A model generated the notes under the pieces. The model did no database searches, was not told where the DNA came from, and worked only from the letters and a program-made list of their open reading frames with translations. A stretch of DNA of 64,000 nucleotides from Candidatus Omnitrophota bacterium (GTDB lineage Bacteria; Omnitrophota; Gorgyraeia; Gygaellales; Gygaellaceae): NCBI GenBank assembly GCA_018400015.1, contig JAGYNB010000001.1:6815-70814 (forward strand), written 5' to 3'. Each line of letters opens with the position of its first letter. Within the stretch, counting starts at the first letter, position 1. Positions 12,723 to 63,751 of this stretch are shown piece by piece. Both the position numbers and the translations under genes were made by a program.

Positions 12723-15700
12723 ATGCGTAAATTTATCAAAAAGGCAATTGCTATTTTTGTATGCTTTGTGTTTGTCTTTGAGCAGGCCGGTTTTGCCCAA
12801 AGCTTAAGCCGGATTGATTTTACTACCCATATAAACACTTTAAACAATCAGTATAGTTATGAAAAGTTTCAACCTGCGCATTTAAGGATGCTTTCTTACG
12901 ATAGATATTCGCAGCAATTTAGTTTTTTGGTCGATAGAGGAGACTACAATAACATAGAAAAAGAATTTTTGAAGCAGGTAACAGATAAGTTGTTTAGGAT
13001 GTTTCTTATCGGTTTAACCCTGCCAGACGATTCATTCTGGGTCAATCTTAGGCCTGATTCTCCCGAAGATATAATTGATAGTAATCTTGCCAAGACAGAT
13101 ATGGGCAGAATTTTTCTTGAGGCAGACCTGCAGCTTAAAAAAGATACAGCACGCTTTACATCTCCAGCAACAAAAGAAGGCAACCTTTATTGGCAGAGGC
13201 TGCAAGAAAAAGCTAATGAGCTTTTTGGGGTTCCAAACGTAAATATTCCTACATTGGCTAGACCATGGATAGTGCCAGGAGAAATAATATTGCGCGAGAC
13301 CGCCAGCGACGTTTATATCTATAAGGCGACTATCAACGTGATGCTCGAAGAAGACTATATAAAAGATTATCCAAGGTTTAATTTTAAGGATAAGCGCATG
13401 AAGGAGTTAAATGAGCATGCCTCAAGGTTGATGCGCGAAATAATAATCCCTCGTCTGGTCAAGGAAGTTAACACAGCTAAAAGATACGCGAGGCTTCGGC
13501 AGGTGTTTTATTCTTTAGTTATGGCGAAATGGTTTAAAGAAAGATTTAAGAATTCATCAGGCCGTTATGTTAGGCTTATCAATCAAGGCAGGCTTGAAGG
13601 TTTATTGTCAAAAGAAAAATGGTCTGTTAAGCCGTATTTTGAAGCCTACCAGAAGTCATTTCAGGAGGGAGAATATGAAATAAAAGTTTTCGGCAAAGGC
13701 GGATCTAACAAGGTAAGAGTTTATTTTAGCGGCGGGGCTTTACCCATGCCTAATGTAATACCTGATCCAGGGGAAACTATTGTTGATTCCGCTACCGGAA
13801 CAACGATAACTTCTATTTCCGCGCAAGAACAAATAGTTTTAGAGCAGGCGCCCCGGATTATCAAACAGGATACAAACGTTTTGATTAGCGAAGGAGAAGA
13901 CGTTTCCATTAATCCCGATGCCGTAGATGAAGACAGAAGATATCATGCTGACGAGAGAGAAAAATATAACCGTATACTTAAGTGGACAGAGACGGCAGAT
14001 CTTTTAAAAAGTGTATGGATCAGAGCATTGTCAGCAATGAATCCGGAAAGAAAAGAAAATCTGTTTAATACCGAAATTGAGCTTTTGATTGATTATCTAC
14101 AGACGCAGAATCCTTTGGGGCAGATTTTAAATAAAGGGAACACCGGCGATAGAATCGTAGTTTTTCAGGTTCCTGGAATTGCCAGGGAAGGTTTTGGCAT
14201 AAAAGACTTAAATGATAAGTTAGGGTACGAGCTTAATACAAGGCTTATCGGTGTTAGAAGGCAGATGATTTCGGAGTTAATGAAAGAAAAAGGGCTTATT
14301 GAAAATGACGGGTTAATTTATAGTACGTACAAAGAAGATGTTTTTCTTGTATCAAGCGATATTCAAATATCGCCGCAGATGTTGCAGGAAATTCAGCATG
14401 AATTGATTGCAAGAATCGGGCAGATTTTAAGAGGCCAATTCGAGTTTAGCAATGCCTTGCGCGTTAATGGTGTTAAGATCCAGCAGTTCAATAATGAGCC
14501 TCTCTATGCTTTAGGTTTTGGCATAGCGCAAATTACCGGTTCTTTGCCGCATGAAAGGATTTTAGCTGACATAAATGCACACCAGGCAATCGTTATAGGA
14601 GAGAATAACGCTGGTTCCAATTACACATTTTCTGAAAAAGATTACAACAAGGTTATTTTCGAGATTGATAGACTTCGTGGTCAACTTAATGAAAATTCGT
14701 ATATTTTTGAAGCAAACGAAGCAGGAGAATTATTTTTGTCACAAGAAGTCGCTGTCGCCCTAAGGGATAATTTGGATTGGGATGGCTTATCAATGCAAGC
14801 GAGAGAACAATTTATAAACGAAGTTAATTTCAATAACGCCAGGCAGTATTTCAGGCTTATTAAAATACAGGATTATATTAAAAAATGGCAGATTGATTTT
14901 GAAAAAGCAAGGGGCCGCTCTCAGCAAATAACCGCTTTAACAGAAAAACTTAAACAGAAGATAGCTCAAAGAGAAGAAAAATATCTTGTACCTATAGATA
15001 ACGAATTGCTTGAATTGGTTGTCCAGGCAAGAGATTTTATTGAAACAGAAACAAAATTGCCGGAGTTTGATTCTGAATTCGCTTTTTACTCCCGCGGTCC
15101 CCCTATGGAGAAGCCGATTTTTGTAACTCTGGATATCAAGAAAATGGGCATTATGAATATAAACGCCAACGAAATAGAACTGCAAAGAGTTTCATCTGCT
15201 CTTCAGTCAGGAGAAGTAGCGTCTTTAGAGGATATTTGGCTTTCGGCCGCAGACAGTGTTACAGAAAATCTTATTGAAACAATGAGAATAGCCAAAGACG
15301 GCATTATCCGAGAATTGGGTATTTCGGAAGATGATTTAACTGTATTAATGGGAGGAGATGAATTTACGTTAGTTTTTGAAGATAATTTGTCTGACAGGTT
15401 AGAAGAAGTTTTATATAAGGTAAAGAACCAGATAAAAGATAAAACTGGGATTGAAGCGAGAATCTGCGCCTCTACTGCAGCTTTAGAATTCGAAAGCGAA
15501 TTTTTTAACCGCAAAGACAATAATTATGAACATTTGGCCTTTGCAAAAACCATTTTAAGTTTAGAGGATGGCATTGCACGGTTAAAAGCATTAGAAAAAC
15601 AAGGCATCCAAGATTTTATAATTATTCAAGATGAAAAAGGTAATTGGCCTGATGTAAAGTCAAGAGTTGAATCAGAAATCAAAAAAGATAAAACTATAAC

Positions 15701-18700
15701 TAGAAGAAGTTTTCTTAGAACACTCGGTTTAGGAACATTGGCTTTAGCAGGCGCAGCTTTTGTCCCTGAATCGGCGAAAGCCGGTATCAGGATGGTTTTA
15801 AGTGATGTGACAGAAGAAAAAGTTTCTGAGTATGAGATGTGGGCGAATCGTTTAGCCGAACTATCCGGGAATAAACAAGAATTTATAGCTGCCTGTAATC
15901 AGCTGCAGCGGCTCATCCATGAAGAAAAAAAACTACATCTTTATAAAGCATACGAAACTGTTATTCAAAGCTCTTTTAATAGATTCCCTCGCGATATTCA
16001 AAGAAGGATTGTTGCTGATACTATAGAATATGTTATTTTCCAGACGGTTAATTTAAAACTTAGCGAACAAGCCAATGCGATTGTTTTAAATTGGCTTTCC
16101 CGCGAAGAAAATCTTAAGTTTGACTCAAAAGACGATTATCAAGTTCAGGCAGATATTGCTTCGCATATAATTCTTTTTTCCTCTAAGTATACCGATACAT
16201 TAGGCAAGGTTTTTAATGGTTATGCAGATGGCGCAATAAAACTCATGAATAAATCAGTTTTCAGGTATTTTGATACGATTAGCAACCAAACTATACAAAA
16301 TAGGTTGATCGATTTTATATCAAATCTCCAGATCAGCGAAAGCAATTTGGATTTGATTAATGAGGTTTTCGCTTCTTTAGGGAGAAAAATCAATGTTATA
16401 CATGATGCAAATGAATATGGCGATTGGCAGGGAGAGATAGTAAAATTTTTAGCTTCTTTTGGAAACAAAGACAGAATATTGCATTTGCTTATTGCTTATG
16501 GAGGCTTTGAACTTTATACGGGAACATTCCAGACTGTCTACAAACTGGCAGAGAAAAGCATAGCGGCAACAGGAGGTATGATTAATTGGTTAAAAAGGGT
16601 CGATGCAGAAAATCTTACCCGTGAACAATTCTTATTAGCCATATCCAGCCGCAATAAGTTGATCGATTTGGTTAGGAATACCAATGCTGATCCGCAGGAA
16701 ATAACGGGCGTATTAATAAATGTATGCGATGTTGTTAAAGAGATAATTGTTAATAAGCACCAGGATAGAAGAAGCTTGGCCTACATATCCAATGCCATAG
16801 AGCAGATATTTCGGTTTGATAACGATCAGGTAAAAGAATATTTAAAAGATATTGTTCTCGCCTTGGCAAAAGAAAACAACCTAACCCTTGTAGTTTTTTC
16901 TTATGTGGTTATTGCTAAGTTTAATGATATTTTTGAAGAAGATATAAAAGAATTTGAAAATGTAGAAAAAAAATTTCTTAATTTAATTAACTATCTTAAT
17001 GCGCCACCAAAAACAGTTTTGATAAACAACCGTTTAGTTGTTTTGGTTGATTATGCAAGTTCAGCTGCAAGTTATTTGGAAGATTTGAAAACCCTTTTTT
17101 CCACTCGTTACAGGTCAAATTATGATATTACTTATCCCAATAAGACAGAGCGGGATGCCGGTATAAAATATAAAATTACCGGGCAGGTTGACGGTATTGA
17201 TATCGAGTTTCATCTTGCAGAAAATATCAAAGGAGAGGATTTTAGAAAAGCTCTCGAGTCCGGTAGGTATTCTATGTTTTGTACAAGACACCATTCTTTT
17301 GAAGGGGCAGAGTTCGCGGGGGTTGGTTCAGATAAGGTATTGCCACAGTTTATTGGTACAATCGGTACTGGCCAAGGAGGAGAAAATAATAGTATGGCAG
17401 TTGTTTTGGCTGAAGAGGTGGCTAAGGCTGTTTCCAGGGATAAACATAACAGTTGGCAAGATATCCGTATGGTGATCGAATCAGGATTAAATCCACAGAC
17501 AGGAAAATTCAATAACGCCGATAGAAGAATGGGTTTGGATAATTTTATTCTTCCAGATTTTCTTGCTAACGTTATGTCATATGTTTTAAATGCCTCTTGG
17601 GATGGATTGCCGGATGCCCAAGAAGTTCGGCCTGTTATTATATTTGACGGCGGATGCGGAGGCGTTAATAGGATTCCCGAATATATCCCCAAGTATAATA
17701 AGGCGTTAGGGAATACGGATTTCTCAAGATTGATTTCTTTGGGTGCGGCTGTTGGCGGGATACAAGGATTAATGAGCGGCAATTTACAGGTCAGCGAGGA
17801 TATTAAGATCGAAATTGATTCAACCGTGGGTTCTAATTACGGATATGGAGAAAGAGTTCCAGAAGAAGAAGTTTTTGAGATTATCAAAAGGGAACGCGAT
17901 GTACAAGAGTTTATGCTTAAAAACCATCCTGAAGTGATACAACAGACGATAGACAATCTTGGTTTTGGTTTTAGTCTAGGCGATTTGGCAAGAATTGTAA
18001 TTTCCTATGAGGCATCCGGAAGCAATAAGCATGTTTTAAAGATCAAAGTTTTTACGGTAACAGGCGAAGAGAAGGCGTTTTTGATAGCTAAAAAAATTCC
18101 AGTAAAAGAAGGGTTTTTATTTGAAGAAGGCGAGGAGTCTGCCCAGCGCAATTTACAAAAAACAGGTTTAGTGCCTAGATTAGGCAAAGTTTATTATTTG
18201 AAAGAAACAGATTCAGGGTTTGAGTATCATGAAAACCCACCAGAAGAAGGCAATTTTGAAACAAGGGTCGCGGAAGAATTTATAAACGGTTTTACTTTAG
18301 CTGAATTAGAGTTTTTTATAGAGCAGTTTTTAGGTACAAAAAAAGCAAGAGAGACAATAAACGGTTTGTTGCAATCTGATCGCGGCAGCAGAGAATATAA
18401 CCTATATCTTGAAAAGTTGAAATCGTTAATTCAAAGTAAGGGGTTTTCAAAGGTTCAGACAGCCAGGCTTATTGAGCTTGCTCAGACCTTGGTGGATTTT
18501 GACAACGAATATAAAATATTGTCCGATGCTGCTGGTCAGTTGTTGCCCGTTAGCTTTATTACTCAGGCTACAAATACTATATTTGATATATTCGCAGCTT
18601 TAAATGAGAACAGCTATTCATTAGAGGCAATATGGTCGCACGATGTTCATTGGAGCAATATAATGTTTGAAAAATCCACAGGCAGGTTAGTCGTAGTTGA

Positions 18701-19382
18701 TTTAGGTAAAACAACAACCGATTCTTTAAATAAATTCTTGCTAGAAACACTTTATTATTATGGTATCAGCGTAGAGCACGGCAAGGGAATTTTAGAAAAT
18801 CTTTTTGTTAATCTAAATGCCGAAAACAGATCGATAGTTTTGCAAACCCTAAGGCCGCTTATAGAGGAAAAAGCAGTTAAGAATTTTCTTTTACAGGCAT
18901 TAAGAGACAGGATCGACACAACGCGCTTAAATAAATTAGATGCTCCGGCAAAAAGGATATCAAAAGCAATTAAGGAATTTTTAGACAGTCAAAAAAGTAA
19001 TTTTGATTCCGGCGGCATAGATTTTACCAATATATCGCCATTGGCATTAGAAGGCAGATCTGTGGCGGAAGGTTTCAGGTTTGACAAACAGGACAGTTTT
19101 TTAAGGGATATGAACGCTTTAATCAATAAGCGTATTATTCCTTCACCAGAAGGCATAAAAGAATATGTTCAGCAAAATTCTGATAAAGAAAACCTGGAAG
19201 ACTTATTAGATGGTGTGTATAATTTGCTGGTTTCAGTATTAAGATTAGAGGAAGAAAAAGTTGTTTTAACAGATGACAAGACAAAAGAATTGCTCAAGGT
19301 TATAGGCTCGACGCACGACTTAACAGATCTACATAACCACTTGCAGGATATAGAGTTTAGCGCCAAAGGGCCAGAGATTTAA
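12723..19382 (+). CDS. Giant secreted or surface protein of unknown function (2219 aa)
   Basis: 6.66-kb uninterrupted ORF in an AT-rich genome. N-terminal signal peptide MRKFIKKAIAIFVCFVFVFEQAGFAQS. RBS AAGGA upstream. I recognise no catalytic domain. Confidence 0.8.
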   Translation: MRKFIKKAIAIFVCFVFVFEQAGFAQSLSRIDFTTHINTLNNQYSYEKFQPAHLRMLSYDRYSQQFSFLVDRGDYNNIEKEFLKQVTDKLFRMFLIGLTLPDDSFWVNLRPDSPEDIIDSNLAKTDMGRIFLEADLQLKKDTARFTSPATKEGNLYWQRLQEKANELFGVPNVNIPTLARPWIVPGEIILRETASDVYIYKATINVMLEEDYIKDYPRFNFKDKRMKELNEHASRLMREIIIPRLVKEVNTAKRYARLRQVFYSLVMAKWFKERFKNSSGRYVRLINQGRLEGLLSKEKWSVKPYFEAYQKSFQEGEYEIKVFGKGGSNKVRVYFSGGALPMPNVIPDPGETIVDSATGTTITSISAQEQIVLEQAPRIIKQDTNVLISEGEDVSINPDAVDEDRRYHADEREKYNRILKWTETADLLKSVWIRALSAMNPERKENLFNTEIELLIDYLQTQNPLGQILNKGNTGDRIVVFQVPGIAREGFGIKDLNDKLGYELNTRLIGVRRQMISELMKEKGLIENDGLIYSTYKEDVFLVSSDIQISPQMLQEIQHELIARIGQILRGQFEFSNALRVNGVKIQQFNNEPLYALGFGIAQITGSLPHERILADINAHQAIVIGENNAGSNYTFSEKDYNKVIFEIDRLRGQLNENSYIFEANEAGELFLSQEVAVALRDNLDWDGLSMQAREQFINEVNFNNARQYFRLIKIQDYIKKWQIDFEKARGRSQQITALTEKLKQKIAQREEKYLVPIDNELLELVVQARDFIETETKLPEFDSEFAFYSRGPPMEKPIFVTLDIKKMGIMNINANEIELQRVSSALQSGEVASLEDIWLSAADSVTENLIETMRIAKDGIIRELGISEDDLTVLMGGDEFTLVFEDNLSDRLEEVLYKVKNQIKDKTGIEARICASTAALEFESEFFNRKDNNYEHLAFAKTILSLEDGIARLKALEKQGIQDFIIIQDEKGNWPDVKSRVESEIKKDKTITRRSFLRTLGLGTLALAGAAFVPESAKAGIRMVLSDVTEEKVSEYEMWANRLAELSGNKQEFIAACNQLQRLIHEEKKLHLYKAYETVIQSSFNRFPRDIQRRIVADTIEYVIFQTVNLKLSEQANAIVLNWLSREENLKFDSKDDYQVQADIASHIILFSSKYTDTLGKVFNGYADGAIKLMNKSVFRYFDTISNQTIQNRLIDFISNLQISESNLDLINEVFASLGRKINVIHDANEYGDWQGEIVKFLASFGNKDRILHLLIAYGGFELYTGTFQTVYKLAEKSIAATGGMINWLKRVDAENLTREQFLLAISSRNKLIDLVRNTNADPQEITGVLINVCDVVKEIIVNKHQDRRSLAYISNAIEQIFRFDNDQVKEYLKDIVLALAKENNLTLVVFSYVVIAKFNDIFEEDIKEFENVEKKFLNLINYLNAPPKTVLINNRLVVLVDYASSAASYLEDLKTLFSTRYRSNYDITYPNKTERDAGIKYKITGQVDGIDIEFHLAENIKGEDFRKALESGRYSMFCTRHHSFEGAEFAGVGSDKVLPQFIGTIGTGQGGENNSMAVVLAEEVAKAVSRDKHNSWQDIRMVIESGLNPQTGKFNNADRRMGLDNFILPDFLANVMSYVLNASWDGLPDAQEVRPVIIFDGGCGGVNRIPEYIPKYNKALGNTDFSRLISLGAAVGGIQGLMSGNLQVSEDIKIEIDSTVGSNYGYGERVPEEEVFEIIKRERDVQEFMLKNHPEVIQQTIDNLGFGFSLGDLARIVISYEASGSNKHVLKIKVFTVTGEEKAFLIAKKIPVKEGFLFEEGEESAQRNLQKTGLVPRLGKVYYLKETDSGFEYHENPPEEGNFETRVAEEFINGFTLAELEFFIEQFLGTKKARETINGLLQSDRGSREYNLYLEKLKSLIQSKGFSKVQTARLIELAQTLVDFDNEYKILSDAAGQLLPVSFITQATNTIFDIFAALNENSYSLEAIWSHDVHWSNIMFEKSTGRLVVVDLGKTTTDSLNKFLLETLYYYGISVEHGKGILENLFVNLNAENRSIVLQTLRPLIEEKAVKNFLLQALRDRIDTTRLNKLDAPAKRISKAIKEFLDSQKSNFDSGGIDFTNISPLALEGRSVAEGFRFDKQDSFLRDMNALINKRIIPSPEGIKEYVQQNSDKENLEDLLDGVYNLLVSVLRLEEEKVVLTDDKTKELLKVIGSTHDLTDLHNHLQDIEFSAKGPEI

Positions 19383-41050: not shown

Positions 41051-43159
41051 ATGTCTTTACTTACAGATACATTAATTAAACAAGGTTTGATTACCGCGGA
41101 ACAGCTTGAAGACGCCAAAGCCAAACAAAGGGGAGCGAAAAAGCCGATTCAAGATCTTTTGGTGGATATGGGATTTGTTACAGAAGATGACATGTTGAAA
41201 GTTTCTTCTTCGGTATTTAACCAGCCGGCAGTAGATCTAACAAATGAAAAATTAGACTCAGAAGTACTAAAACTCATTCCCTATGAATTGGCGAAGCGTT
41301 ATAGCGTATTTGCTTTAAGAAAAGAGTCCGGCCATGTAATTGTTGCCACAAGCGACGTGCAAAATGTAATAGCTTTAGATGATTTAAGGGCAATTACAAA
41401 ACAGAATATAAAAGCATTTCTTTGTAAAAAATCACAAGTAAGCGAATTTATCGAAAAAAGTTATAATTTTGACGATTCTCTTTATGACATAATGAAGAAT
41501 TTTAAGGATGATGTAAAAATTGAACTTGTTAAGACCGATAATGACGAACTGGTTTCGAATAAAAGGTATGAGAAAACATTTGAAATCTCCCCTACAGTGA
41601 GATTGACGAGCCTGATAATAAATGATGCTGTCAAAAAAAGAGCAAGCGATATACATATTGAAGCGCAAGAAAAAATCAGTAAGGTGCGTTATAGGATAGA
41701 CGGGGATCTGAGAAACATTATGGATATCCCCATAAGTATTCACGCCGGTTTAGTCAGCAGAATCAAGGTTCTATCCGGTCTTGATATAGCCGAGACCAGA
41801 AAGCCTCAAGACGGAAGAGTTAAAATATCCCTTAACGGTAAAAGAATAGATCTTAGGATATCAACCATTCCTACCTTTCATGGAGAGAAGCTTGAAATAA
41901 GAGTGCTTGATCCGGAAGAGGCAAAAATTGAACTGTCAAAAATCGGTTTTGAAGATAGTGAAAGTAAGCTTTATAAAGAAGCAATTGTTAAGCCCCAAGG
42001 GATTATTTTGATAACTGGTCCCACAGGTTCAGGTAAAACAAGTACGCTTTACGCAACACTTAATTTTATAAAATCAGAAAATAAAAATATTGTAACTATA
42101 GAAGACCCGATAGAGTATTTGATTGAAGGCGTTAATCAGATGCAGGTTAATCCCGCTAAGGACGTTACTTTTGCCAATGGTTTAAGAAGTCTTTTGCGTC
42201 AAGACCCCAATATTATATTAGTAGGAGAAATAAGAGATAAAGATACCGCTGAGATCGCTTTTAGGTCGTCTTTAACAGGACACTTGGTTTTTTCCACACT
42301 ACATACTAATAATGCAGTAAGCTCAATAACCAGGCTTTTTGATATAGGTTTGGAGCCATATTTGGTGGCTTCTTCTTTGATGATTGTTGTAGCACAACGA
42401 TTGGTAAAGCTTCTTTGTCCTGACTGTAAAGAGGAATACATTCCGGAAGAAAAAATAAAAGAAGATTTTAAAAAATACATAGACCAGCTTAAAATTGATA
42501 AGTTTTACAAGGCAAAGGGATGCCAGAAATGCGGTTATTCCGGGTATTTTGGCAGAACCGCTGTTTTCGAGGTCTTAACGATTAACGATAAGTTGAAAGA
42601 TTTAATAGTTGCAAAAAGTTCTGAAAACATGATTTTGAACGAAGCGCAAAACGCAGGATTAAATTCACTTACCTTATCAGCGATGAAAAAAGTAAAAGCG
42701 GGGATTGTTTGTATTGAGGATGTAGCAAAAATAATCGGCGTAGCAGAGAAAGACAAAATCGTTCAAAAGTCCGTGGAAACCGGAGAAAAGCTAAGAATTC
42801 TTGTTGCCGATGACGAGGAAGATTTATTGGCTTTGGTTAAAAAACGTTTAGAGGCAGCCGGGTATGAAATTATCATCTCCAGAGACGGCGAAGAGTTGGT
42901 CGAGTTGGCACATAATAAAAAACCAGATTTGATTATTACCGATGTAACTATGCCAAAACTTAACGGATACGAAGCAGTCAATGCTTTAAAGACAAGTTTA
43001 GAAACCGCCTCTATTCCAATTATTATGCTTACTGCCCGTCAAGATAAGGATAGTGAAATTAAAGGGATAGATGTTGGTGCCGATGATTATATTACCAAAC
43101 CGTTCGATAAAGATAAGTTGTTAGCAAGGATAAAAATGCTTTTGAGAAGGAAAAAGTAA
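41051..43159 (+). CDS. GspE/PilB-family secretion ATPase with C-terminal receiver domain
   Basis: N-terminal T2SSE_N domain. Walker A GPTGSGKTST. Tetracysteine CPDC...CQKCGYSGY. C-terminal REC (ILVADDEEDLL...DLIITDVTMP...K). Confidence 0.85.
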   Translation: MSLLTDTLIKQGLITAEQLEDAKAKQRGAKKPIQDLLVDMGFVTEDDMLKVSSSVFNQPAVDLTNEKLDSEVLKLIPYELAKRYSVFALRKESGHVIVATSDVQNVIALDDLRAITKQNIKAFLCKKSQVSEFIEKSYNFDDSLYDIMKNFKDDVKIELVKTDNDELVSNKRYEKTFEISPTVRLTSLIINDAVKKRASDIHIEAQEKISKVRYRIDGDLRNIMDIPISIHAGLVSRIKVLSGLDIAETRKPQDGRVKISLNGKRIDLRISTIPTFHGEKLEIRVLDPEEAKIELSKIGFEDSESKLYKEAIVKPQGIILITGPTGSGKTSTLYATLNFIKSENKNIVTIEDPIEYLIEGVNQMQVNPAKDVTFANGLRSLLRQDPNIILVGEIRDKDTAEIAFRSSLTGHLVFSTLHTNNAVSSITRLFDIGLEPYLVASSLMIVVAQRLVKLLCPDCKEEYIPEEKIKEDFKKYIDQLKIDKFYKAKGCQKCGYSGYFGRTAVFEVLTINDKLKDLIVAKSSENMILNEAQNAGLNSLTLSAMKKVKAGIVCIEDVAKIIGVAEKDKIVQKSVETGEKLRILVADDEEDLLALVKKRLEAAGYEIIISRDGEELVELAHNKKPDLIITDVTMPKLNGYEAVNALKTSLETASIPIIMLTARQDKDSEIKGIDVGADDYITKPFDKDKLLARIKMLLRRKK

Positions 43160-54799: not shown

Positions 54800-55652
54800 A
54801 CAATCGATAAAGGATACGGTATTTACGGTTTTTGATGTTGAAACCACAGGTCTTTTTCCGCAGATGGGAGATAGGATATGCGAGATAGCCGCTTTAAAGA
54901 TTAAACAGGGGCAGGTAATAGACCAATTTTATTCTTTGGTTAATCCGTTGAAGAATATGCCTGTTGAGGCATATAACATCCACCATATATCCCAAGAGAT
55001 GGTAAAGGACGCTCCCAGCAGCGCTAAGGTTTTGCCAAAGTTTCTAAGCTTTGTAGAAGGAACATGCTTGTGTGGTTATAATGTTGGATTTGATATTGGT
55101 TTTCTTGAGAGCGAGCTAGGATTGATTAATCTAACGCTTGATGATAAATTACCGGTAGTAGATGTTTTAAAAATTGCCCGTAGGCTTTTTCCCGATTTAA
55201 CCAGCCATTCGCTGCTTAATTTTTCAAGAGCTATGGGTATTGCGGCTAATCAAAAGCACAGGGCTATGGATGATGTTGAGTTGACTATTAAGGTATTTAG
55301 TATGCTCATAAAGAACCTGGAAAATAATAACCTAACGAATTTTGAAGATATGCATAATTTGTTCGGTAATAACCTTAAGCTTATCAATAGTGTAAACCAG
55401 CTGAAGATTGACCGGATATCCAGGGCGATAGATAAACAAGTTAATCTTGATATAAAATATTTTACTATTTCTAACGGCAAAATTACAAACCGTTTGATAA
55501 AACCAATAGAGATAGTTGAGTTAGGCAATAATAAGTATGTGAATGCTTATTGTTATTTAAGAAAAGATAATAGAAATTTTAAAATTGAGGGTATATTGGA
55601 AATTTCTTCTGCAGTAGATTCTAAGGTTTCGCAGAAAGCAAAAAATTTATGA
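54786..55652 (+). CDS. DnaQ-like 3'-5' exonuclease fused to a C-terminal WYL-like domain
   Basis: Exo I FTVFDVETTGL. Exo II and III present (HRAMDD). C-terminal ...NNKYVNAYCYLRKDNRNFKIEGILEI resembles the WYL core (..WYL.AYC..R...R.FRLDRI). Confidence 0.65.
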   Translation: MSQDKQSIKDTVFTVFDVETTGLFPQMGDRICEIAALKIKQGQVIDQFYSLVNPLKNMPVEAYNIHHISQEMVKDAPSSAKVLPKFLSFVEGTCLCGYNVGFDIGFLESELGLINLTLDDKLPVVDVLKIARRLFPDLTSHSLLNFSRAMGIAANQKHRAMDDVELTIKVFSMLIKNLENNNLTNFEDMHNLFGNNLKLINSVNQLKIDRISRAIDKQVNLDIKYFTISNGKITNRLIKPIEIVELGNNKYVNAYCYLRKDNRNFKIEGILEISSAVDSKVSQKAKNL

Positions 55653-57991
55653 AGAGAGTTTTTATTACCATATTGGTTTTAATATCGGTTTGTGGCTGTG
55701 ATATGGATATTGCCCAAAGTTACTTTAAAATAAGCAACTTTTTCTATGCCCGGGCTGTAGACAGTTACCAGACTAGGCTCAAGAAAAATCCAGAAGATGA
55801 TACACTTAAGTACCGTTTAGGCAAATTATATTATGAACACGGTGATTTTAAGCAAGCGGAACAATATTTGGCACAGGCAGACACCAGAGATGCCAGTGTT
55901 TTATTAGCACATAATTATTATAATTTGGCTGACTATACAAGCGCATTGGCGGTTTTTGACTCATTGGGAGAAATTGATAATGGACGTTATTTGTATTTTT
56001 ACGGCCTTACATGCGAGAAGCTTAATCTTTTTGACCAGGCGATGAATATCTACGCTAAGATTAAAGACAATCTTTATGTTTCACAGGCAAAGGAAAGAAT
56101 CGCTATTATAAATTCTAATATTCAGCGGTCAATTATTAGAGAAAAAGATAATGAGATTTATGATTTGCTTATTAAAGCTGACGAAGAAAGATATCCACAG
56201 GCAGGGGCAGTAGTTTTTGTCGATGAAAAGATGCAGGTTTTTGATGACAACACCGCAGTTATAAAAATACATGTTATAGCGAAGATATTAAATGACCGCG
56301 GTAAAGAGGGTATGTCTGAAATCGAAATCGGTTATGATTCTACCTATGAGCAAGTTGAGCTTGAATTTGCGCGTACAATAAAGCCGGATTCAACGGTGAT
56401 AAGCGTAGGCACAAAGAACATAAGAGACGTTTCGAGGTATTTAAATTTTCCTTTATATAGCAATGCCCGAGTAAGGATTATTTCTATGCCTGAAGTGATG
56501 GAGGGTTCTATAATTGAATATAAAGCTACTATTAAACGCCACAAGTTGGTAGATGAAAATAAATTCGTTGTTAATTATTCGTTGCAGGAGTCGGATCCGA
56601 TAATAAAAGCATTATTTTCTCTGGTTATTCCAAAAAGCAAAGATATAAACATTAAAACAATAAACAGCGAGTACAACACTTTCAATGCCCAGATGAAGCC
56701 TTCTGTCGAGGTGGTTGGTAATAACAAAGTTTATAAATGGAGTTTTTCCAATATTCCCCAGATATTGCCAGAATCAAACATGGTTCCCACAAGTTGGGTT
56801 AATCCGATTTTCCTTGTTTCTAATTTTGATTCTTGGAAGCAGATTTATGATTGGTGGTGGGATTTGGCGTACGATAAAATAGTAGCCGATAGCAATATAA
56901 AGGGGAAAGTCAAAGAATTAATTCAGGATAAGGACAATGATTTTGAAAAAGCTCAAGCGATTGCTAATTTTTGCATTGAGAAAATTCGTTATGTAGCAGT
57001 GGAATACGGTCAGGCAGGATATCAACCGCATCAGGCAAAGGAGATATTTCAGAATAAATACGGAGACTGCAAGGATCAGGCGATATTATTGATTACGATG
57101 CTTAAAGAGGCCGGTTTCAAGGCTTATCCGGTCTTGATTGGGACGAAGGAGCTGCCTTCGTTAGAAGAAGATTTTCCAACCCTTCTTTTTAATCATGCGA
57201 TAGCAGCTGTAGAATTGTCTAGTGGCGAGTATACCTTTATTGATCCTACCGCACAGACTTGTTCTTTTGGAGATTTGCCTGAAGGTGATCAGAATAGATT
57301 GGTGCTTTTGTTTAGAGAGGATAATTTCGTATTGTTAAAAACCCCTGAGTTTAAAAGTGAAAAAAACTATATTTATAAAGAGCTGGATATGAAGATAAAT
57401 ACTGATGAAAGTATAACTGCTTCAAGGCGAGTTGTTTCTTCAGGTGTTTTTGATCAGGGACAACGCTATTGGCTTAAATTTACTCCTCCTCAGCTTATTG
57501 GAGAGTTTTTAGAAGAAAGTATCCAAGATATAAGTATTTCAGCAAAATTAGAAGATTATGAGATTGTCAATCTCGATAGGCTTGGTAGCCCAGTAGAGCT
57601 CAAGTATGTTTTTAGCGGAGCCCATTATTTGATTAAATCTGGGCCAGCAAGAATTTTGCCTGCATTTAGCCAAATAAATACCGCTATTGTTGCTAAAGAC
57701 AACAGGCGCTATCCGATAGATTTAGGGCTTCCCTATAAAAAAGAATTAATATTTAAGATTGAATTACCCCAGGATTATAAGATAAAATATATTCCAGACA
57801 GTATCACTTATGAAAATGAATGGATGTATTTTGATAATGGTTATGAAGTAAAGAGCCAGGAGTTGTATTTTCATGAAACCCAAATCAATAAAAAATCCGT
57901 TGTTGAAACTGTAAAATATAATGAATTTAAGAATGGTTTGGAAGAATTGGCTAAGAAAATAGATCAAAGGGTCATATTGGAAAAAAGGTAA
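55649..57991 (+). CDS. Secreted or lipoprotein transglutaminase-like protein with N-terminal TPR and DUF3857/3858-like regions
   Basis: Signal peptide ending VCGC. Catalytic-Cys motif YGDCKDQAILLITMLKEAGFKAYPV. 780 aa. Confidence 0.65.
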   Translation: MKRVFITILVLISVCGCDMDIAQSYFKISNFFYARAVDSYQTRLKKNPEDDTLKYRLGKLYYEHGDFKQAEQYLAQADTRDASVLLAHNYYNLADYTSALAVFDSLGEIDNGRYLYFYGLTCEKLNLFDQAMNIYAKIKDNLYVSQAKERIAIINSNIQRSIIREKDNEIYDLLIKADEERYPQAGAVVFVDEKMQVFDDNTAVIKIHVIAKILNDRGKEGMSEIEIGYDSTYEQVELEFARTIKPDSTVISVGTKNIRDVSRYLNFPLYSNARVRIISMPEVMEGSIIEYKATIKRHKLVDENKFVVNYSLQESDPIIKALFSLVIPKSKDINIKTINSEYNTFNAQMKPSVEVVGNNKVYKWSFSNIPQILPESNMVPTSWVNPIFLVSNFDSWKQIYDWWWDLAYDKIVADSNIKGKVKELIQDKDNDFEKAQAIANFCIEKIRYVAVEYGQAGYQPHQAKEIFQNKYGDCKDQAILLITMLKEAGFKAYPVLIGTKELPSLEEDFPTLLFNHAIAAVELSSGEYTFIDPTAQTCSFGDLPEGDQNRLVLLFREDNFVLLKTPEFKSEKNYIYKELDMKINTDESITASRRVVSSGVFDQGQRYWLKFTPPQLIGEFLEESIQDISISAKLEDYEIVNLDRLGSPVELKYVFSGAHYLIKSGPARILPAFSQINTAIVAKDNRRYPIDLGLPYKKELIFKIELPQDYKIKYIPDSITYENEWMYFDNGYEVKSQELYFHETQINKKSVVETVKYNEFKNGLEELAKKIDQRVILEKR

Positions 57992-57995
57992 ATGT

Positions 57996-58367
57996 ATGAA
58001 AAAAGAAAGCAACAGGGATTTAAATTACCAGATTAACTTTTTTGAAAAGTTGCTTCAGCGTAATCCTAATTATGTTGACGCAATGATTGCTTTAGCCGAA
58101 GCATATACAAAAAAAGGAATGTATCAAAAAGGTTTTGAAATAGATATGCGCTTATCACAAATTAAAAAACACGATCCGATAGTGCACTATAATCTTGCAT
58201 GCAGCCTGTCTCTTTTAGGTAAGATCGAAGAAGCGCTATCCGCGTTATCCAGAGCAATTTATTTAGGATATGATGATTTTGATTATATAAAGCAAGACCC
58301 AGACTTGAATAATTTACGCGAAGATAGAAGGTTCGATAAATTACTAAAGGCGGTAGCAAAAAAATGA
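57996..58367 (+). CDS. TPR-repeat protein
   Basis: Helical repeats such as AMIALAEAYTKKGMYQKG and HYNLACSLSLLGKIEEAL. Confidence 0.55.
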   Translation: MKKESNRDLNYQINFFEKLLQRNPNYVDAMIALAEAYTKKGMYQKGFEIDMRLSQIKKHDPIVHYNLACSLSLLGKIEEALSALSRAIYLGYDDFDYIKQDPDLNNLREDRRFDKLLKAVAKK

Positions 58368-60337
58368 AAAATGATTTTAAAGAAAGAAGAAGATACATTC
58401 GTTTAAGTACTGTTTTTCCAGTTGAGTTCAAATTGAATTCCGGCGAAGGAGTTTCTTTGTCTGACTGGTTAGAAGGTTTTACCTCTAATATCAGCAAAGG
58501 AGGTATTTGTCTTGTTGCAAATAATCTAAAAGTCGACACATTAAAAATAGTAGAATCAAAAAAAGCAAAAGTGTCTTTAAAGATAAATCTGCCTTTTAAG
58601 AAAAGTCCGATAGATGCGTTAACGAAAGTTGCCTGGTTGAGAAAAATAAAAACTGAGCCTTTCAATCAGTATATTATTGGTCTTGAATACGAAGTAATTA
58701 ACCAGGCAGACAATAAACAGATAGTTAAATTTGCAAAATTCAAGAGAAGATTTTCTTTTTTCGTCACTTTGCTGGTTGTTTTTCTTGCCGCATCGGTAAT
58801 CGCAAGTGGTGTCTATAATTATAAGTTGTACAGCCATAATAGGAAATTAGTTAAGCGGCTATTGACTAACGTTGACCAGTCTTCATTGCTGGAAGGAAGA
58901 ATCGATAGAATAAATAAAGAAAAAAGTCAAATCGAGGTTCGGATTTTTGAAGAAAAAAATAAAAATGCTGTTTTATTGGAAGAAATTAAGTCTTTAAAAT
59001 CTGCCATAGAGCGAACTAAGGGGATTGAGAAAAAAGAATACGAAGAAAAGTTGGCTGCCTTAGAAAAAGAAATTAATAGAGCGTTATTAGAGAAAAATAA
59101 GTTGGCTGAAAGATTAAAAACTCTCGAAGAAACTCAGACTAAAGCGCAGGAGAAACTTCTCGTGCTCAATAAAGAATATACTCCCATAAAGGAAGATGTA
59201 ATTGATAATATGTATGGTTGGTTGTTGTCACATCAGCATTCACGTACGGGACTTGTAGCAAGTTTTGAAGGGACAGATCAATTAAATGATTGCGCTTTTA
59301 TTTACGATCAGGCACTGGTAGCGATTGCCTACATAATTAGAGAAGATTACGATAAGGCAGAGGCAATATTTGATTTCTTCTCAAACGCAAAGCTTGTTAA
59401 AGGAGCATTTGCCAACGGCTATTATATTTCTACAAGAGATGTGTTTGAGTATATTGTTCATGCCGGCCCAAATCTTTGGCTTGGCATTGCAATATTACAG
59501 TATATACACAAATCAAACGATAACCAGTTTCTGCCTTTGGCTGAGAAAATAGCTTCTTGGATTATTGCTCTTCAGTCAGAGGATAAAGATGGCGGTATAA
59601 GGGGAGGACCCGATGTTTCATGGTATTCTACAGAACACAATTTAGACGCCTATGCTTTTTTTGATATGTTTTATACGCTTACCAAGAAAGAAAAATATAA
59701 GAATGCAAGGAATAAGGTTTTAAAATGGCTTGAAAAATATGCTTATGATAATCCTCAGATTCCGGTTAAAAGAGGCAAAGGGGATTCTACTATTGCCACC
59801 GATACTTATACTTGGTCTATTGCTAGCATTGGTCCGGAAAAACTAATTGCAATCGGGATGGATCCAGATAGAATAATTAGCTTTGCCGAGGATAATTGCA
59901 GTGTGGAAGTTGATTATAAATCTTCTTCCGGAGCAATGAAGAAAGTAAAAGGTTTTGATTTTGCTAAGGCGGCGAATATCGCACGCGGCGGAGTTATCTC
60001 TTGTGAATGGACCGCACAGATGGTACTTTCTTACAAAATAATGAGCGTGTATTATGCAGGAATAAAAGATAAAAATAATGCATTGTATTATAAAGACAAA
60101 GCAAATAAGCTTTTATCAGAGCTGGATAAGATGATTATGTGCAGTCCTTCGCGAACTGGCCAGGGATGTGGATGTCTGCCTTATGCTAGCAGTTCTTTTG
60201 TTGATACTGGTCATGGGTGGCGTACGCCAAAACAAGAGCAGACAGGTTCTTTGGCTGCAACTAGCTATGCCTTTTTTGCTTACTACGGTTTCAATCCTTT
60301 AGCTTTAGATGAAACAAGTCTTAACCAGGGTATATAG
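58364..60337 (+). CDS. PilZ-domain membrane protein with C-terminal alpha-helical-toroid (glycoside-hydrolase-like) domain
   Basis: PilZ motifs RRRYIRLS...FTSNISKGGI. One TM. Long coiled coil. C-terminal ~350 aa has (alpha/alpha)-repeat character. Confidence 0.6.
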   Translation: MKNDFKERRRYIRLSTVFPVEFKLNSGEGVSLSDWLEGFTSNISKGGICLVANNLKVDTLKIVESKKAKVSLKINLPFKKSPIDALTKVAWLRKIKTEPFNQYIIGLEYEVINQADNKQIVKFAKFKRRFSFFVTLLVVFLAASVIASGVYNYKLYSHNRKLVKRLLTNVDQSSLLEGRIDRINKEKSQIEVRIFEEKNKNAVLLEEIKSLKSAIERTKGIEKKEYEEKLAALEKEINRALLEKNKLAERLKTLEETQTKAQEKLLVLNKEYTPIKEDVIDNMYGWLLSHQHSRTGLVASFEGTDQLNDCAFIYDQALVAIAYIIREDYDKAEAIFDFFSNAKLVKGAFANGYYISTRDVFEYIVHAGPNLWLGIAILQYIHKSNDNQFLPLAEKIASWIIALQSEDKDGGIRGGPDVSWYSTEHNLDAYAFFDMFYTLTKKEKYKNARNKVLKWLEKYAYDNPQIPVKRGKGDSTIATDTYTWSIASIGPEKLIAIGMDPDRIISFAEDNCSVEVDYKSSSGAMKKVKGFDFAKAANIARGGVISCEWTAQMVLSYKIMSVYYAGIKDKNNALYYKDKANKLLSELDKMIMCSPSRTGQGCGCLPYASSSFVDTGHGWRTPKQEQTGSLAATSYAFFAYYGFNPLALDETSLNQGI

Positions 60338-60944
60338 TACTCTCTATAGGCATTTTGGTCCTCAATATTGGTGGCCTGCAGATAGTGTTTTTGAGATTAT
60401 AATCGGAGCGATATTAACTCAAAATACCAATTGGCAGAATGTCGAGATGGCGATTAGTAATTTAAGAAAAGCAAAACTGCTTCATGCGAAAAAACTTTAT
60501 TTGCTTAAGACCAAAAAACTCGCCCAGCTTATAAGGCCTTCCGGGTATTACAATATTAAAGCTAAAAGGTTGAAATGTTTCTTGAAGTTCCTGTTTAACA
60601 ATTACAACGGAAGTTTGAGCAAAATGTTAAATAAAGATTTGTTGAGCTTGCGCGAAGAGTTGTTATCGATTAAAGGTATAGGCGAGGAAACAGCAGATTC
60701 AATAATTCTTTATGCAGCTAAATTGCCAATATTTGTGGTGGATGCCTATACAAAAAGATTCTGCCAAAGACATCGGTTAACAGATATAAATGCAAGTTAT
60801 GCTGAAACGCAAAAGGTATTTATGGATAACCTTAAGGAAGACGCTAGATTGTTTAATGAATTTCACGCACTCTTAGTAAGATTAGGAAAAGAATTTTGTT
60901 TAAAAACTAAACCAAAATGCAAAGAATGCCCTTTAAAAAATTAG
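60309..60944 (+). CDS. HhH-GPD family DNA glycosylase (endonuclease III-like)
   Basis: HFGPQYWWPADS N-terminus. HhH-GPD block LLSIKGIGEETADSIILYA...VVDAYTKR. C-terminal partial Cys cluster. Confidence 0.6.
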   Translation: MKQVLTRVYSTLYRHFGPQYWWPADSVFEIIIGAILTQNTNWQNVEMAISNLRKAKLLHAKKLYLLKTKKLAQLIRPSGYYNIKAKRLKCFLKFLFNNYNGSLSKMLNKDLLSLREELLSIKGIGEETADSIILYAAKLPIFVVDAYTKRFCQRHRLTDINASYAETQKVFMDNLKEDARLFNEFHALLVRLGKEFCLKTKPKCKECPLKN

Positions 60945-63751
60945 TTTATTTATTTAGCGTGCTTTTATTTGTTGCGTTGTGGTCTATACCGGTTAAAGAT
61001 TGTTATGCAAAAGCATTAAGCTACGATATTAAAGCAGAGCTTGATTATGAAAATCATGTAATTGTTGCTACTGAGAAAGTAGATTTTATAAATAATTCAC
61101 AGTTTGATTTACGGGAGGTTTATTTTCATATTTATCCTAATAGGAAATATACAAAGAAAGAAATAGATTTTATTTATATGTATTCGGGATATTTTAAGAT
61201 GAATCCTTACCCGGAAGGTTTTGATCGGGGAGAGTTTAATATAAAGAACATATTTGTTAACGGACAAAATGCCAATTTCGTAATCGAAGGAGAAGATGAA
61301 ACGATTTTAAAAGTTAACCTACCAGGTAAGCTCCTTCCGGGAAAGAGCTTGAATATAAATATAGATTTTTCTTTGCGCATACCGCATGCCTATGGCCGTT
61401 TAGGATGGCATAAAAATATTATTTCTTTAAACAGGTGGTATCCAATTGTAAGCTACCTTGATGCTGATTCTTGGCGTAATCATCCATTTTATGTTTACCA
61501 TCAGCCTTTTGTTCAGGATGCAAGCAGTTATCAGGTAGAGCTTACCTTAAGGGACGATCTAAAAGTAATCAATTCTGCTGACCAACAAGAAATAAGCCTG
61601 GAAAACGGAAAAAAGACTTTGCTGTTGCAGTCTACTTATCCTGTTAGGGATTTCTCATTTGCAATCAGCCCGGATTATCAGATGATTGAAAAGAAATTCA
61701 ATAACATTTCCATAAAATCTTACTATTTATCCGGGGATGAAGATAAGGCCCGGCAGGCGCTGGAAAACGTTATTTCTTTATTTGCCTACTATACTGAAGA
61801 AATAGGCGACTATCCTTTTAAGAGTTTCAGCATAGCACCTGTATTCTTAGGCTACGGCGGTCATGAGACAAGCAATATGATTTTTATCGATACGCGCGCT
61901 TATAAAATGCCGGGTTTTCTAAAAAGACACTTTGATTTTTTAGTTTCGCATGAAACAGGACATCAGTGGTTTTATAATCTTATTGGTTCAGATGAATTTA
62001 AGGAAACATTTCTTGACGAGGGTCTAAATTCGTTTTTTTTACTGAAATATTTAGAGCATAAATACGGGAAAGATGCTCAAGTCTTAGATTTGCCAAACAG
62101 TTTAAAGTGGTTAGTGCCGAATTTTAGTTTTCAGGACGCAGGAAGGTTTCGGTATCTGTTTGCTGCTAAAAATGCATGGGATAGGCCTGTATTAGGAGAG
62201 CTATCTAGTTTTCAGGAGCCTTCAAGTATTTTTACGATTGCATATGGTAAAGGTACTCAGATTTTGACAGCCATTGAGTCTATTATTGGCACGGAAGAGT
62301 TTAATAAAGCGATAAAAGAGTATTTTCAGAACTTTAAGTTTAAACTTGCCAATACAAAAGATTTTATCGATATAGTTGACAAAGCAACGGAAATCGATTT
62401 AAAGCCGCTTATGGATAGGTTGCTTAATGAAGTCTATATATGTGATTATTCATTGGAGAAAATCGGCAATAAGTTATATTTGAAGAATAAAGGAACCCTT
62501 AAACAGCCCGTTGTTGTAAATATAGTTTATAAGGATAAAAGCAAAAAGCGATTATTTTTAGAAGGTAAAGATGAAATGACGGTTCTCCCGATAGAAAAAC
62601 TGGAAGATGTGGAAATTGTCTATTTGTCAGAGTCTGTTTTGTCTTTGGATGTAGATAAAACGAATAATTCTTTACCACGAAGGTTCAAATTAAGGATAGT
62701 TCCTCTATACTATTTTGTTTATGATTTACCTATCTTTGTTGATCCCACGGCAGTTAATTTTACAACCGGACCAACCATTGGTATAAACAGTCTGGGTATT
62801 AAGTCTTCATTACAGAAGATGCTTGATTATCACATTACGGCAGGCTCAGGCTATGATTTTAGCGAAAAACTTTTAATAAACGAAATGGGTGTAAATTTAT
62901 TTCATTTAAAAGACAAACAGATAAATCTTGGAATAAATTTATCAAAACAGAAGGACTATAAAGATAATAATTTTGTTAAAGACGATCTTGAAAGCATAAA
63001 AGTTTTTTTAAGAAAAGAGCTACGACCGGTTGGCTACGGGCTTTTTGAGCCCAACGATCATATAAGCGTTTATCTTTTACACGAAGACCGGCCAAAAGGT
63101 TTTTTAGTTAATAAAGGTATAGACCATTCGGGAAATAAAAATTATTATTTAAAAGATGAGTCTATGATCGGGATTGATTTTTGCATAAACCAGGCATCGA
63201 CATACCCTAACTATACTAAAGGGTACCAGGCATTTTTTAATATAGAACAGGCTGGACATTTCTTGTCGGGTGAAAGCGATTTTACAAGAGGCACGATTAA
63301 AATAAACAAGTTTTTGCCTGTTTCTGAAAAAGATTCATTGGGGCTGTTTTTTAAGCTGGGATTAGGCACTCCTAGGGATAAATACCTTTTTTTTGCCGGA
63401 GGTGCTAGTGGTTTAAGAGGGTATGACCGCAAAGACATCAAAGGCAGCAACATGTTTGTTTCGCGCATTGAGTACAAGAGCTCTATAGTTGAAGACTTAG
63501 GTTTGTATTTGGCAGATAATCTTATTCATTTTAATGAAGTTTATTTAATCCCATTTTTTGATATTGGTAAGTCATGGTTTGACAGCTTCAAAAGAGAAAG
63601 TTTTAAGAAAGATGCAGGTATTGGGGTTAGTTTTGATCTAGAATTAGCAGGGTTTCTAGAAGCAGTTTCTTTGCGTTTTGATTTTGCTCAGGCGATTGAT
63701 GAGCCGAAACAGGGTTCCCGAATCTGGTTTAGTTTAAATCAGTCATTTTAA
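60917..63751 (+). CDS. M1-family zinc aminopeptidase-like domain fused to a C-terminal Omp85 (surface antigen D15) beta-barrel
   Basis: Signal peptide. Gluzincin motif [30 protein letters not shown]-terminal [10 protein letters not shown] and terminal ...WFSLNQSF beta-signal. Confidence 0.7.

Follow-up and report, generated by a model that had tools for sequence, protein, structure and literature searches.

A single gene encodes an M1 zinc peptidase joined to a POTRA-less Omp85 barrel in Candidatus Omnitrophota

A peptidase and an outer-membrane barrel in one reading frame

The 64,000-nucleotide stretch of contig JAGYNB010000001.1 analysed here (Candidatus Omnitrophota bacterium, assembly GCA_018400015.1; called here the window) carries, at positions 60917..63751 of the + strand, a gene encoding an M1 zinc peptidase followed by an outer-membrane beta-barrel of the Omp85 superfamily (called here M1-Omp85). 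This fusion had been proposed in an initial annotation made from the letters of the window, and our analysis confirmed that the peptidase and the barrel are encoded as a genuine single gene. The gene is one frame of 944 amino acids (aa) with 0 internal stops, and at E<=1 only two Pfam families were matched in its product, Peptidase_M1 (PF01433; residues 283-501, E 9.8e-22, 78.1 bits, gathering cut-off 27.7) and Omp85 (PF01103; residues 666-944, E 4.4e-12, 46.6 bits, gathering cut-off 24). Both matches exceed the curated cut-offs and are far beyond chance. The NCBIfam library gave only weak, sub-threshold matches to the leukotriene-A4 hydrolase and PepN models and to BamA, TamA and Omp85 models. 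The signal peptide expected from the initial annotation was found as an ordinary Sec-type N-terminus with a hydrophobic helix at residues 6-23, and signal-peptide-like N-termini are present in nearly all members of an alignment of 51 homologues (39-71% identity), to which all conservation counts given below refer. It should be noted that the open reading frame (ORF) shares its first 28 nucleotides (nt) with the end of the EndoIII-like gene upstream and that an alternative in-frame ATG lies 3 codons downstream (M4, nt 60926), from which the same signal peptide results.

The peptidase half belongs to family M1

Comparison of the protein with PDB sequences by phmmer matched its N-terminal half to M1 aminopeptidases (glutamyl aminopeptidase 4kx7, 3e-12). 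Similarly, a Foldseek search of the PDB with the full structural model returned IRAP, ERAP1, ERAP2 and the tricorn factor F3 as top matches (E ~1e-25, probability 1.0), in alignments of ~575-600 columns that include M1 domain I and are long enough for domains I-III; the alignment to the NCBIfam leukotriene-A4 hydrolase model begins at residue 103. The gluzincin motif reported in the initial annotation is in place, HETGH occupying residues 345-349 and E368 standing exactly 18 residues past the second histidine. H345, E346, H349, E368 and Y443 are unchanged in 51/51 homologues, and so are two more residues of the YGKG motif, K445 and G446; the HEXXH-X18-E signature is kept across all the distant fusion tiers described below. 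By its profile, its fold, this signature and the catalytic tyrosine, the peptidase half is a member of family M1. Since the zinc ligands, the catalytic glutamate and the transition-state tyrosine are invariant, the module also looks catalytically competent.

The position equivalent to the GxMEN motif of M1 aminopeptidases is less uniform. It mostly reads G-G-x-Q-S/M-S-N in the family, with Gln in 44/51 sequences and Glu in 7/51, and the window protein is among the seven, its GGHET having kept the Glu and lost the Asn. The stand-alone relatives and the distant fusions carry GGMEYP or GNE(C/T) at this position; Glu is therefore the ancestral residue, and its replacement by Gln a trait of most core Omnitrophota proteins.

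No counterpart of the helical domain IV of long M1 enzymes was found in the AlphaFold2 (AF2) model, in which the chain goes from a small beta-sandwich (residues 511-594) into the barrel. Domain composition varies among M1 enzymes, and loss of domain IV does not exclude membership. The idea that the barrel replaced domain IV in evolution was considered and is weakened, because the closest relatives in sequence, secreted stand-alone M1 proteins of a mere ~500 aa, are themselves without domains III and IV.

The C-terminal half is an Omp85 barrel without POTRA domains

The AF2 model of the full-length protein, built with the 51-sequence alignment, has a mean predicted local distance difference test score (pLDDT) of 88.4 and a predicted template-modelling score (pTM) of 0.88, and contains 16 strands between residues 612 and 943. 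A separate AF2 model of residues 505-944 (pLDDT 83.4, pTM 0.73) again gave the beta-sandwich followed by 16 strands. The C-terminal barrel of the initial annotation was thus recovered (16 strands at pLDDT 83-88 and Foldseek matches to TamA and BamA at probability 1.0), its size being ~333 aa (612-944) and not the ~300 aa first estimated. With the C-terminal model, the top Foldseek match was TamA 8us3 (2.5e-9, probability 1.00), and BamA of E. coli, Bacteroides (B. thetaiotaomicron), F. nucleatum and Deinococcus was also matched; on barrel-only TamA chains the template-modelling (TM) score was TMt 0.62 for 4n74 and 0.63 for 8us4. In the phmmer search against PDB sequences, residues 760-944 matched 9ccg_A, the BamA of Fusobacterium nucleatum.

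The hallmark and the terminal signal noticed in the initial annotation could both be placed on this fold. GGASGLRGY occupies residues 828-836 (nt 63398-63424), and its LRGY falls between strands 11 and 12, that is, at the canonical Omp85 position and register of loop 6 (L6); L833, R834 and G835 are invariant whereas position 836 is Y, F or W. The protein ends in ...SLNQSF, and the terminal F944 is invariant in 51/51 sequences. Taken together, the 16 strands, the profile, the fold and the L6 motif establish the barrel as a genuine member of the Omp85 superfamily without POTRA domains.

No Pfam match to a POTRA domain was obtained at E<=1 with the whole protein or at E<=10 with residues 501-612 alone. 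A POTRA domain between peptidase and barrel was accordingly excluded, residues 511-594 being all-beta and not beta-alpha-alpha-beta-beta and the Pfam searches being negative. POTRA-less Omp85 subfamilies are already recognised (PMC4104836), so the missing POTRA leaves membership of the superfamily standing. The protein did not fit the BamA, TamA, TpsB or type Vd classes. It scored 24.2 bits with the BamA equivalog NF058613 (cut-off 1050) and 21.5 bits with the TamA equivalog NF047950 (cut-off 625), with no POTRA domains in either case, and no large DUF490/TamB-like neighbour is encoded in the window or at 80 related loci. Neither a POTRA_2/ShlB-type Pfam match nor, in the window and the 80 loci, a TpsA-like neighbour of the kind that goes with the TpsB class was found. 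With type Vd proteins only the barrel is shared, the N-terminus being an M1 peptidase and not a patatin and POTRA being absent. Passage of the N-terminal domain to the outside, another trait of that class, is now disputed even for PlpD (PMC11116518).

The fusion is inherited as a unit in Omnitrophota

A word-indexed search of 5.8 billion proteins yielded 351 matches. The best 120 of these are all 899-978 aa long, all carry PF01433 and PF01103 and share 39-71% identity with the query; one NCBI protein is 100% identical. The sequences are therefore not new, and are already in public databases under generic automatic names (Candidatus Omnitrophota 'M1 family aminopeptidase', 'BamA/TamA family outer membrane protein' or 'hypothetical protein'). 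In the label 'M1 family aminopeptidase' the barrel goes unmentioned, and more is probably claimed for the specificity of the enzyme than is known.

When one genome was scanned for each GTDB species, 80 loci (L001-L080) came to light, and in these 80 species representatives the gene is present in one copy per genome with conserved synteny. The nearest locus is that of Candidatus Gygaella obscura (70% identity), and almost all others are labelled Omnitrophota or Omnitrophica. The remaining labels are uncultured Planctomycetales/Planctomycetia, Planctomycetales bacterium and, once each, Deltaproteobacteria bacterium, uncultured bacterium and bacterium. Since the loci so labelled (L002, L004, L010, L013, L014, L018, L020, L053 and others) share the flanking gene order of the Omnitrophota-labelled loci, the taxonomy in their record titles is probably a placeholder or wrong, and they probably belong to the same Omnitrophota lineage. 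No second M1 or Omp85 gene was detected in the locus flanks or elsewhere in the window, the search for a second Omp85 having used an unfiltered hidden Markov model (HMM) of the family barrel, and Pfam on the ten largest other ORFs, over the window and the flanks.

Both halves lie in one ORF at 78/80 loci, from independent assemblies, the remaining 2 being cut by contig ends. Together with the at least 120 full-length homologues that carry both Pfam domains in one frame and the identical NCBI protein, these loci exclude a sequencing or assembly frameshift that would have merged two adjacent genes, the likelihood of which we put at virtually nil. Moreover, pairwise identities computed for the N- and C-terminal halves of the 51 sequences co-vary (Mantel r = 0.85, a value reached by 0/2000 permutations). 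Given the single-ORF loci and the co-varying halves, the fusion is old and was inherited as a unit, and both halves are shown to be under strong purifying selection.

Distant relatives carry the same architecture

When 1.84 billion cluster representatives were searched exhaustively with HMMER, 9280 matched at E<=1e-3, 887 of them at E<=1e-30, and the best 150 were examined. About 15-20 of these clusters (50% identity) are full-length fusions of the core type, at identities down to ~28%. Many others are stand-alone M1 proteins of ~480-520 aa that match residues ~35-500 only; their N-termini resemble signal peptides or those of lipoproteins, and neither the beta-sandwich nor the barrel is present. 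Two tiers of more distant fusions were distinguished. The C-termini of Tier A (904-1058 aa) are matched by the Omnitrophota-barrel HMM (E 1e-17 to 1e-40) and end in ...NQVF, ...YQAF or ...HPF, and one Tier A cluster includes HVK13363.1, an 'M1 family metallopeptidase [Gemmataceae bacterium]' of the Planctomycetota. Gemmataceae include cultured planctomycetes, and this relative might make study in a culturable organism possible if cultured species carry an orthologue.

Tier B proteins (~830-1015 aa) contain M1 domains I-III and a C-terminal region of ~330 aa that neither Pfam nor the barrel HMM recognised. Profile-profile comparison matched this region to the Omnitrophota barrel over nearly its whole extent, Tier B1 with 89.8% probability (E 1.8e-6, 270 columns) and Tier B2 with 84.2% probability (E 7.4e-6); Tier B3 gave 2% directly and joins via B1 at 97%. 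With these moderate scores the Tier B C-terminus is probably a related barrel. One B1 cluster includes NOY77449.1, from the Calditrichota. The combination of M1 module and barrel thus occurs in both Omnitrophota and Planctomycetota, and probably also in Calditrichota. The initial annotation had called it uncommon, which holds among studied bacteria but not within Omnitrophota, where it is a phylum-wide single-copy gene, nor does it allow for the occurrence in Planctomycetota.

Fusions with barrels that escape Pfam were seen in a Calditrichota bin and in several metagenomic lineages (among P0141-P0267), and some distant fusions carry L6-like motifs such as GDGNMRGY and GGPGLRGY. One protein, P0146 (1,204 aa), has a tandem M1 duplication with two HEXXH sites and no barrel.

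Conservation is strongest on the periplasmic face of the barrel

In every Omp85 protein known to us, strand 1 enters the membrane from the periplasm. The LRGY motif in L6 fixes the register of the M1-Omp85 barrel, so that the extracellular loops are the odd-numbered connections, the periplasmic turns are the even-numbered ones and strand 1 comes from the periplasm. The 'surface-antigen' name in the initial annotation does not imply surface display, as the standard topology would leave the peptidase in the periplasm. Turn T3 is the most conserved inter-strand element of the barrel and is unusually long, and both T3 and T4 are more conserved than most extracellular loops (Table 1), which places the constraint mostly on the periplasmic face. 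T3 is a candidate contact surface for the peptidase module. The pTM of the full-length model compared with that of the C-terminal part alone (0.88 vs 0.73) suggests a fixed packing between the domains, and the linker that leads into strand 1 has a mean majority fraction of 0.70 over its 17 residues.

Table 1. Features of the M1-Omp85 protein and their positions in the window
Feature	Residues	Window position	Strand	Basis or comment
Signal peptide	1-31	60917..61009	+	sequence (...CYA|KA); AF2 helix 6-23, then low-confidence segment
M1 domain I, N-terminal beta domain	34-270	61016..61726	+	AF2 all-beta, pLDDT >90
M1 catalytic thermolysin-like domain II	275-504	61739..62428	+	PF01433 283-501; mixed alpha/beta (AF2)
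GxMEN-equivalent motif G-G-H-E-T	314-318	61856..61870	+	aligned to GAMEN of 4kx7
Zinc/catalytic motif HETGH-X18-E	H345, E346, H349, E368	61949..62020	+	51/51 invariant
Catalytic Tyr motif YGKG	Y443	62243..62254	+	aligns with Y-x-K-G of M1 aminopeptidases
Small beta-sandwich, M1 domain III-like	511-594	62447..62698	+	AF2, 6-7 strands
Linker into strand 1	595-611	62699..62749	+	17 residues, length fixed in 51 sequences
16-stranded Omp85-type beta-barrel	612-944	62750..63748	+	AF2 (two models), PF01103, Foldseek
Extracellular loop L3	681-690			length 2-10; mean majority fraction 0.28
Periplasmic turn T3	702-714	63020..63058	+	13 residues in 51/51 sequences; mean majority fraction 0.80
Extracellular loop L4	725-747			length 22-24; mean majority fraction 0.50
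Periplasmic turn T4	759-768			length 10, fixed; mean majority fraction 0.70
Loop 6 (strands 11-12) with GGASGLRGY		63371..63448	+	Omp85 (V/I/L)RG(Y/F) hallmark
Extracellular loop L7	888-896			length 9; mean majority fraction 0.47
Last strand, C-terminal beta-signal and stop codon		63719..63751	+	W937, F944 invariant 51/51

Relation to known systems

Omp85 proteins are the universal machinery for building outer membranes. Nearly all of those studied have POTRA domains, and their task is the movement or insertion of proteins. M1-Omp85 is an enzyme-bearing, POTRA-less Omp85 protein, kin in kind to the patatin-Omp85 protein PlpD. Like PlpD and FplA, it combines an N-terminal hydrolytic enzyme and a C-terminal 16-stranded Omp85 barrel in one polypeptide. 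The enzyme of PlpD is however a patatin-like phospholipase and not an M1 peptidase, and PlpD, a homodimer with a dynamic lid, has one POTRA domain whereas M1-Omp85 has none. PlpD was long called a type Vd autotransporter, yet its N-terminal enzyme is not secreted, the patatin domain being periplasmic and packed against the POTRA domain and the barrel, and in 2024 it was thereby revealed that an Omp85 scaffold can carry a periplasmic enzyme (PMC11116518). The non-POTRA subfamilies of Heinz & Lithgow 2014 ('Metallo', WD40-Omp85 and noNterm) likewise have an N-terminal non-POTRA region, for which a periplasmic role was proposed (PMC4104836). By contrast, none of the ten architectures of that classification has an M1 peptidase, the word 'peptidase' is absent from it, and its 'Metallo' domain is PF00149, unrelated to PF01433 (PMC4104836).

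With the long M1 aminopeptidases (IRAP, ERAP1/2, APN, PepN and F3) the protein shares the fold of domains I-III, HEXXH-X18-E and the catalytic Tyr, the M1 module being matched to them by Foldseek at E ~1e-25 over ~585 columns; it differs from them in that domain III is followed by the barrel instead of the helical domain IV and in the degenerate GxMEN motif. BepA (M48 plus TPR, acting at the BAM complex) is a possible functional analogue, as a zinc metallopeptidase at the periplasmic face of an Omp85 barrel that serves quality control of outer-membrane proteins (OMPs), but its peptidase family is a different one, it is soluble and encoded apart from BamA, with which its contact is non-covalent, and nothing in this analysis points to OMP substrates for M1-Omp85. 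In AaaA of Pseudomonas aeruginosa (type Va), too, an aminopeptidase is covalently linked to a barrel in the outer membrane. That barrel is of the classical 12-stranded autotransporter type, and the passenger, displayed on the surface, is a member of family M28; AaaA contains no Omp85 barrel and no M1 enzyme.

The searchable literature, including the 2014 Omp85 classification (PMC4104836), yielded no account of such a fusion and no paper that places PF01433 and PF01103 in a single protein. Among the searchable papers the two accessions co-occur only in a Burkholderia surface-immunoproteome study, there presumably on separate proteins, and two major Omnitrophota genomics papers (PMC10066038 among them) mention neither Omp85, BamA nor aminopeptidase. 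Neither the architecture as a class in its own right, nor how widely it occurs, nor its likely topology thus appears to have been described. M1-Omp85 would be a second, independent case of an enzyme-carrying Omp85 protein, here with a protease, and one much more strongly conserved than PlpD, the gene being present once in each genome throughout an uncultured phylum, with deep branches in other phyla. It adds an architecture that is missing from the standard ten-family Omp85 classification. The protein also offers a concrete and testable way into the envelope biology of Omnitrophota.

Proposed role and alternative explanations

We propose that M1-Omp85 is an outer-membrane-anchored zinc peptidase of the periplasm. 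We consider this location and general role probable, and would name any particular substrate with less assurance. The protein would be produced as a single secreted polypeptide and exported by Sec; its C-terminal aromatic beta-signal would direct the barrel into the outer membrane via the cell's own insertase, and the peptidase module would remain on the periplasmic side, where strand 1 enters. This periplasmic placement is deduced from the canonical Omp85 topology and from the revised precedent of PlpD. Both the high pTM obtained for the whole protein and the length and conservation of the periplasmic turns suggest that the peptidase is docked under the barrel, against these turns. The barrel would serve as both anchor and platform. 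The substrates of the enzyme may be peptides or unfolded polypeptides met at the inner face of the outer membrane, and its task quality control of envelope proteins or the processing of peptides. The phylum-wide, single-copy and syntenic distribution fits such a housekeeping function better than an accessory offensive factor. A closer coupling, which we regard as distinctly unlikely, would have the M1 cleft open on the periplasmic mouth of the barrel and the barrel stand in for the cap formed by domain IV, the two making one machine that cuts polypeptides as they pass through the barrel or are handled by it (imported peptides, or proteins being inserted or exported). Were this true, it would define a new functional class of Omp85 protein in Omnitrophota, Planctomycetota and probably Calditrichota.

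Several points weigh against the proposed periplasmic role. The extracellular loops are short compared with those of BamA, and an open pore with another role is possible. The replacement of the exopeptidase Glu by Gln in 44/51 sequences makes the name 'aminopeptidase', and the mode of cleavage, uncertain. Finally, no functional partner was found among the conserved neighbours at the 80 loci, which include no TamB, TpsA, BamB-E or Skp.

The same architecture could be read as a device for surface display or secretion, in which the barrel exports the M1 module in the manner of an autotransporter (type Vd as first conceived), the enzyme then either breaking down peptides outside the cell as nutrients or serving to attack host or prey cells. 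The passenger-then-barrel order is that of PlpD and FplA, and barrel-tethered surface aminopeptidases such as the P. aeruginosa autotransporter AaaA exist. Surface display was raised by Heinz & Lithgow for enzyme-Omp85 fusions (PMC4104836), and predatory or parasitic, host-dependent lifestyles have been proposed for Omnitrophota (PMC10066038). We nevertheless consider it unlikely, because its founding example was overturned when the patatin domain of PlpD proved periplasmic (PMC11116518), because a globular, zinc-dependent, three-domain M1 module of ~570 residues is unlike the beta-helical passengers that fold outside, and because POTRA is absent, conservation is strongest in the periplasmic turns and not in the outer loops, and a phylum-wide single copy agrees better with housekeeping than with an offensive factor.

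That the protein is a working insertase or translocase, as a BamA/TamA substitute or in translocation-coupled processing, with the peptidase replacing POTRA and trimming clients, appears highly unlikely to us. The invariant L-R-G of L6, the 16 strands, the closest folds (TamA and BamA), the naming of one cluster by NCBI as 'BamA/TamA family outer membrane protein' and the lack of another Omp85 gene in the window or in ~1 Mb of flanking sequence from related loci would all be compatible with it. However, a membrane-proximal POTRA is required for BamA function and M1-Omp85 has no POTRA domain, the equivalog scores are far from those of BamA and TamA (24 and 21.5 bits vs 1050 and 625), no TamB, TpsA or Bam lipoprotein genes lie nearby, and its own C-terminal beta-signal implies that the protein is a client of a separate insertase. 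As for a non-catalytic scaffold, in which the M1 module would only bind peptide or protein like some M1 pseudo-enzymes, the degenerate GxMEN motif with its Glu to Gln change would agree with it, but the zinc ligands, the catalytic Glu and the Tyr are invariant in the family and kept in the distant tiers, a pattern not expected of a dead enzyme, and we consider this extremely unlikely.

Gene neighbourhood and other features of the window

Clustering of the ORFs over the 80 related loci identified as conserved neighbours EndoIII-like HhH-GPD, PilZ/coiled-coil, TPR, DUF3857/transglutaminase and Ste24-like M48 proteins, as well as aminotransferases, an Lrp/AsnC-like protein (by eye), M20, PAC2, UPF0047 and PfkB. 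As TamB, TpsA, BamB-E and Skp are missing from them, the synteny looks like a general phylum-wide gene order. In the window, M1-Omp85 is the last gene of a same-strand block (55649-63751, +) in which stops and starts overlap or abut and whose order, DUF3857/transglutaminase/TPR, small TPR, PilZ/coiled-coil, EndoIII-like HhH-GPD and M1-Omp85, recurs in many Omnitrophota; the block may be an operon with a shared envelope role or a mere conserved gene order, either being possible. The Ste24-like M48 zinc peptidase is inserted upstream in 23/80 loci and is absent from the window. The product of the PilZ/coiled-coil gene (58364-60337, +) is 657 aa long. At its N-terminus lies a PilZ domain of the c-di-GMP receptor type; a membrane segment is predicted as well, and the protein has a long coiled coil and a C-terminal region of ~370 aa that matches no Pfam family. 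The gene is conserved beside that of M1-Omp85 in 35/80 loci.

Throughout the window (1-64000), all gene-like ORFs of at least 120 aa are on the + strand, the few minus-strand ORFs being nested in longer + ORFs, and the GC skew is positive in every 2-kb bin (0.09-0.30), an extreme strand bias that is consistent with one replichore. An ORF of 2,219 aa at 12723-19382 (+) matched no Pfam family at E<=1e-5; very long proteins without known function are a familiar trait of Omnitrophota. The gene at 41051-43159 (+) encodes a type II/IV secretion ATPase (T2SSE, MshEN N-domain) with a C-terminal response-regulator receiver domain and is followed by genes for a triple-PAS protein and a Cache-domain histidine kinase, which suggests that a two-component system directly controls a motor for pili or secretion. 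Lastly, a member of the nitrogenase component 1-type oxidoreductase family (PF00148, 196 bits) is encoded at 5010-6518 (+), in an otherwise housekeeping stretch.

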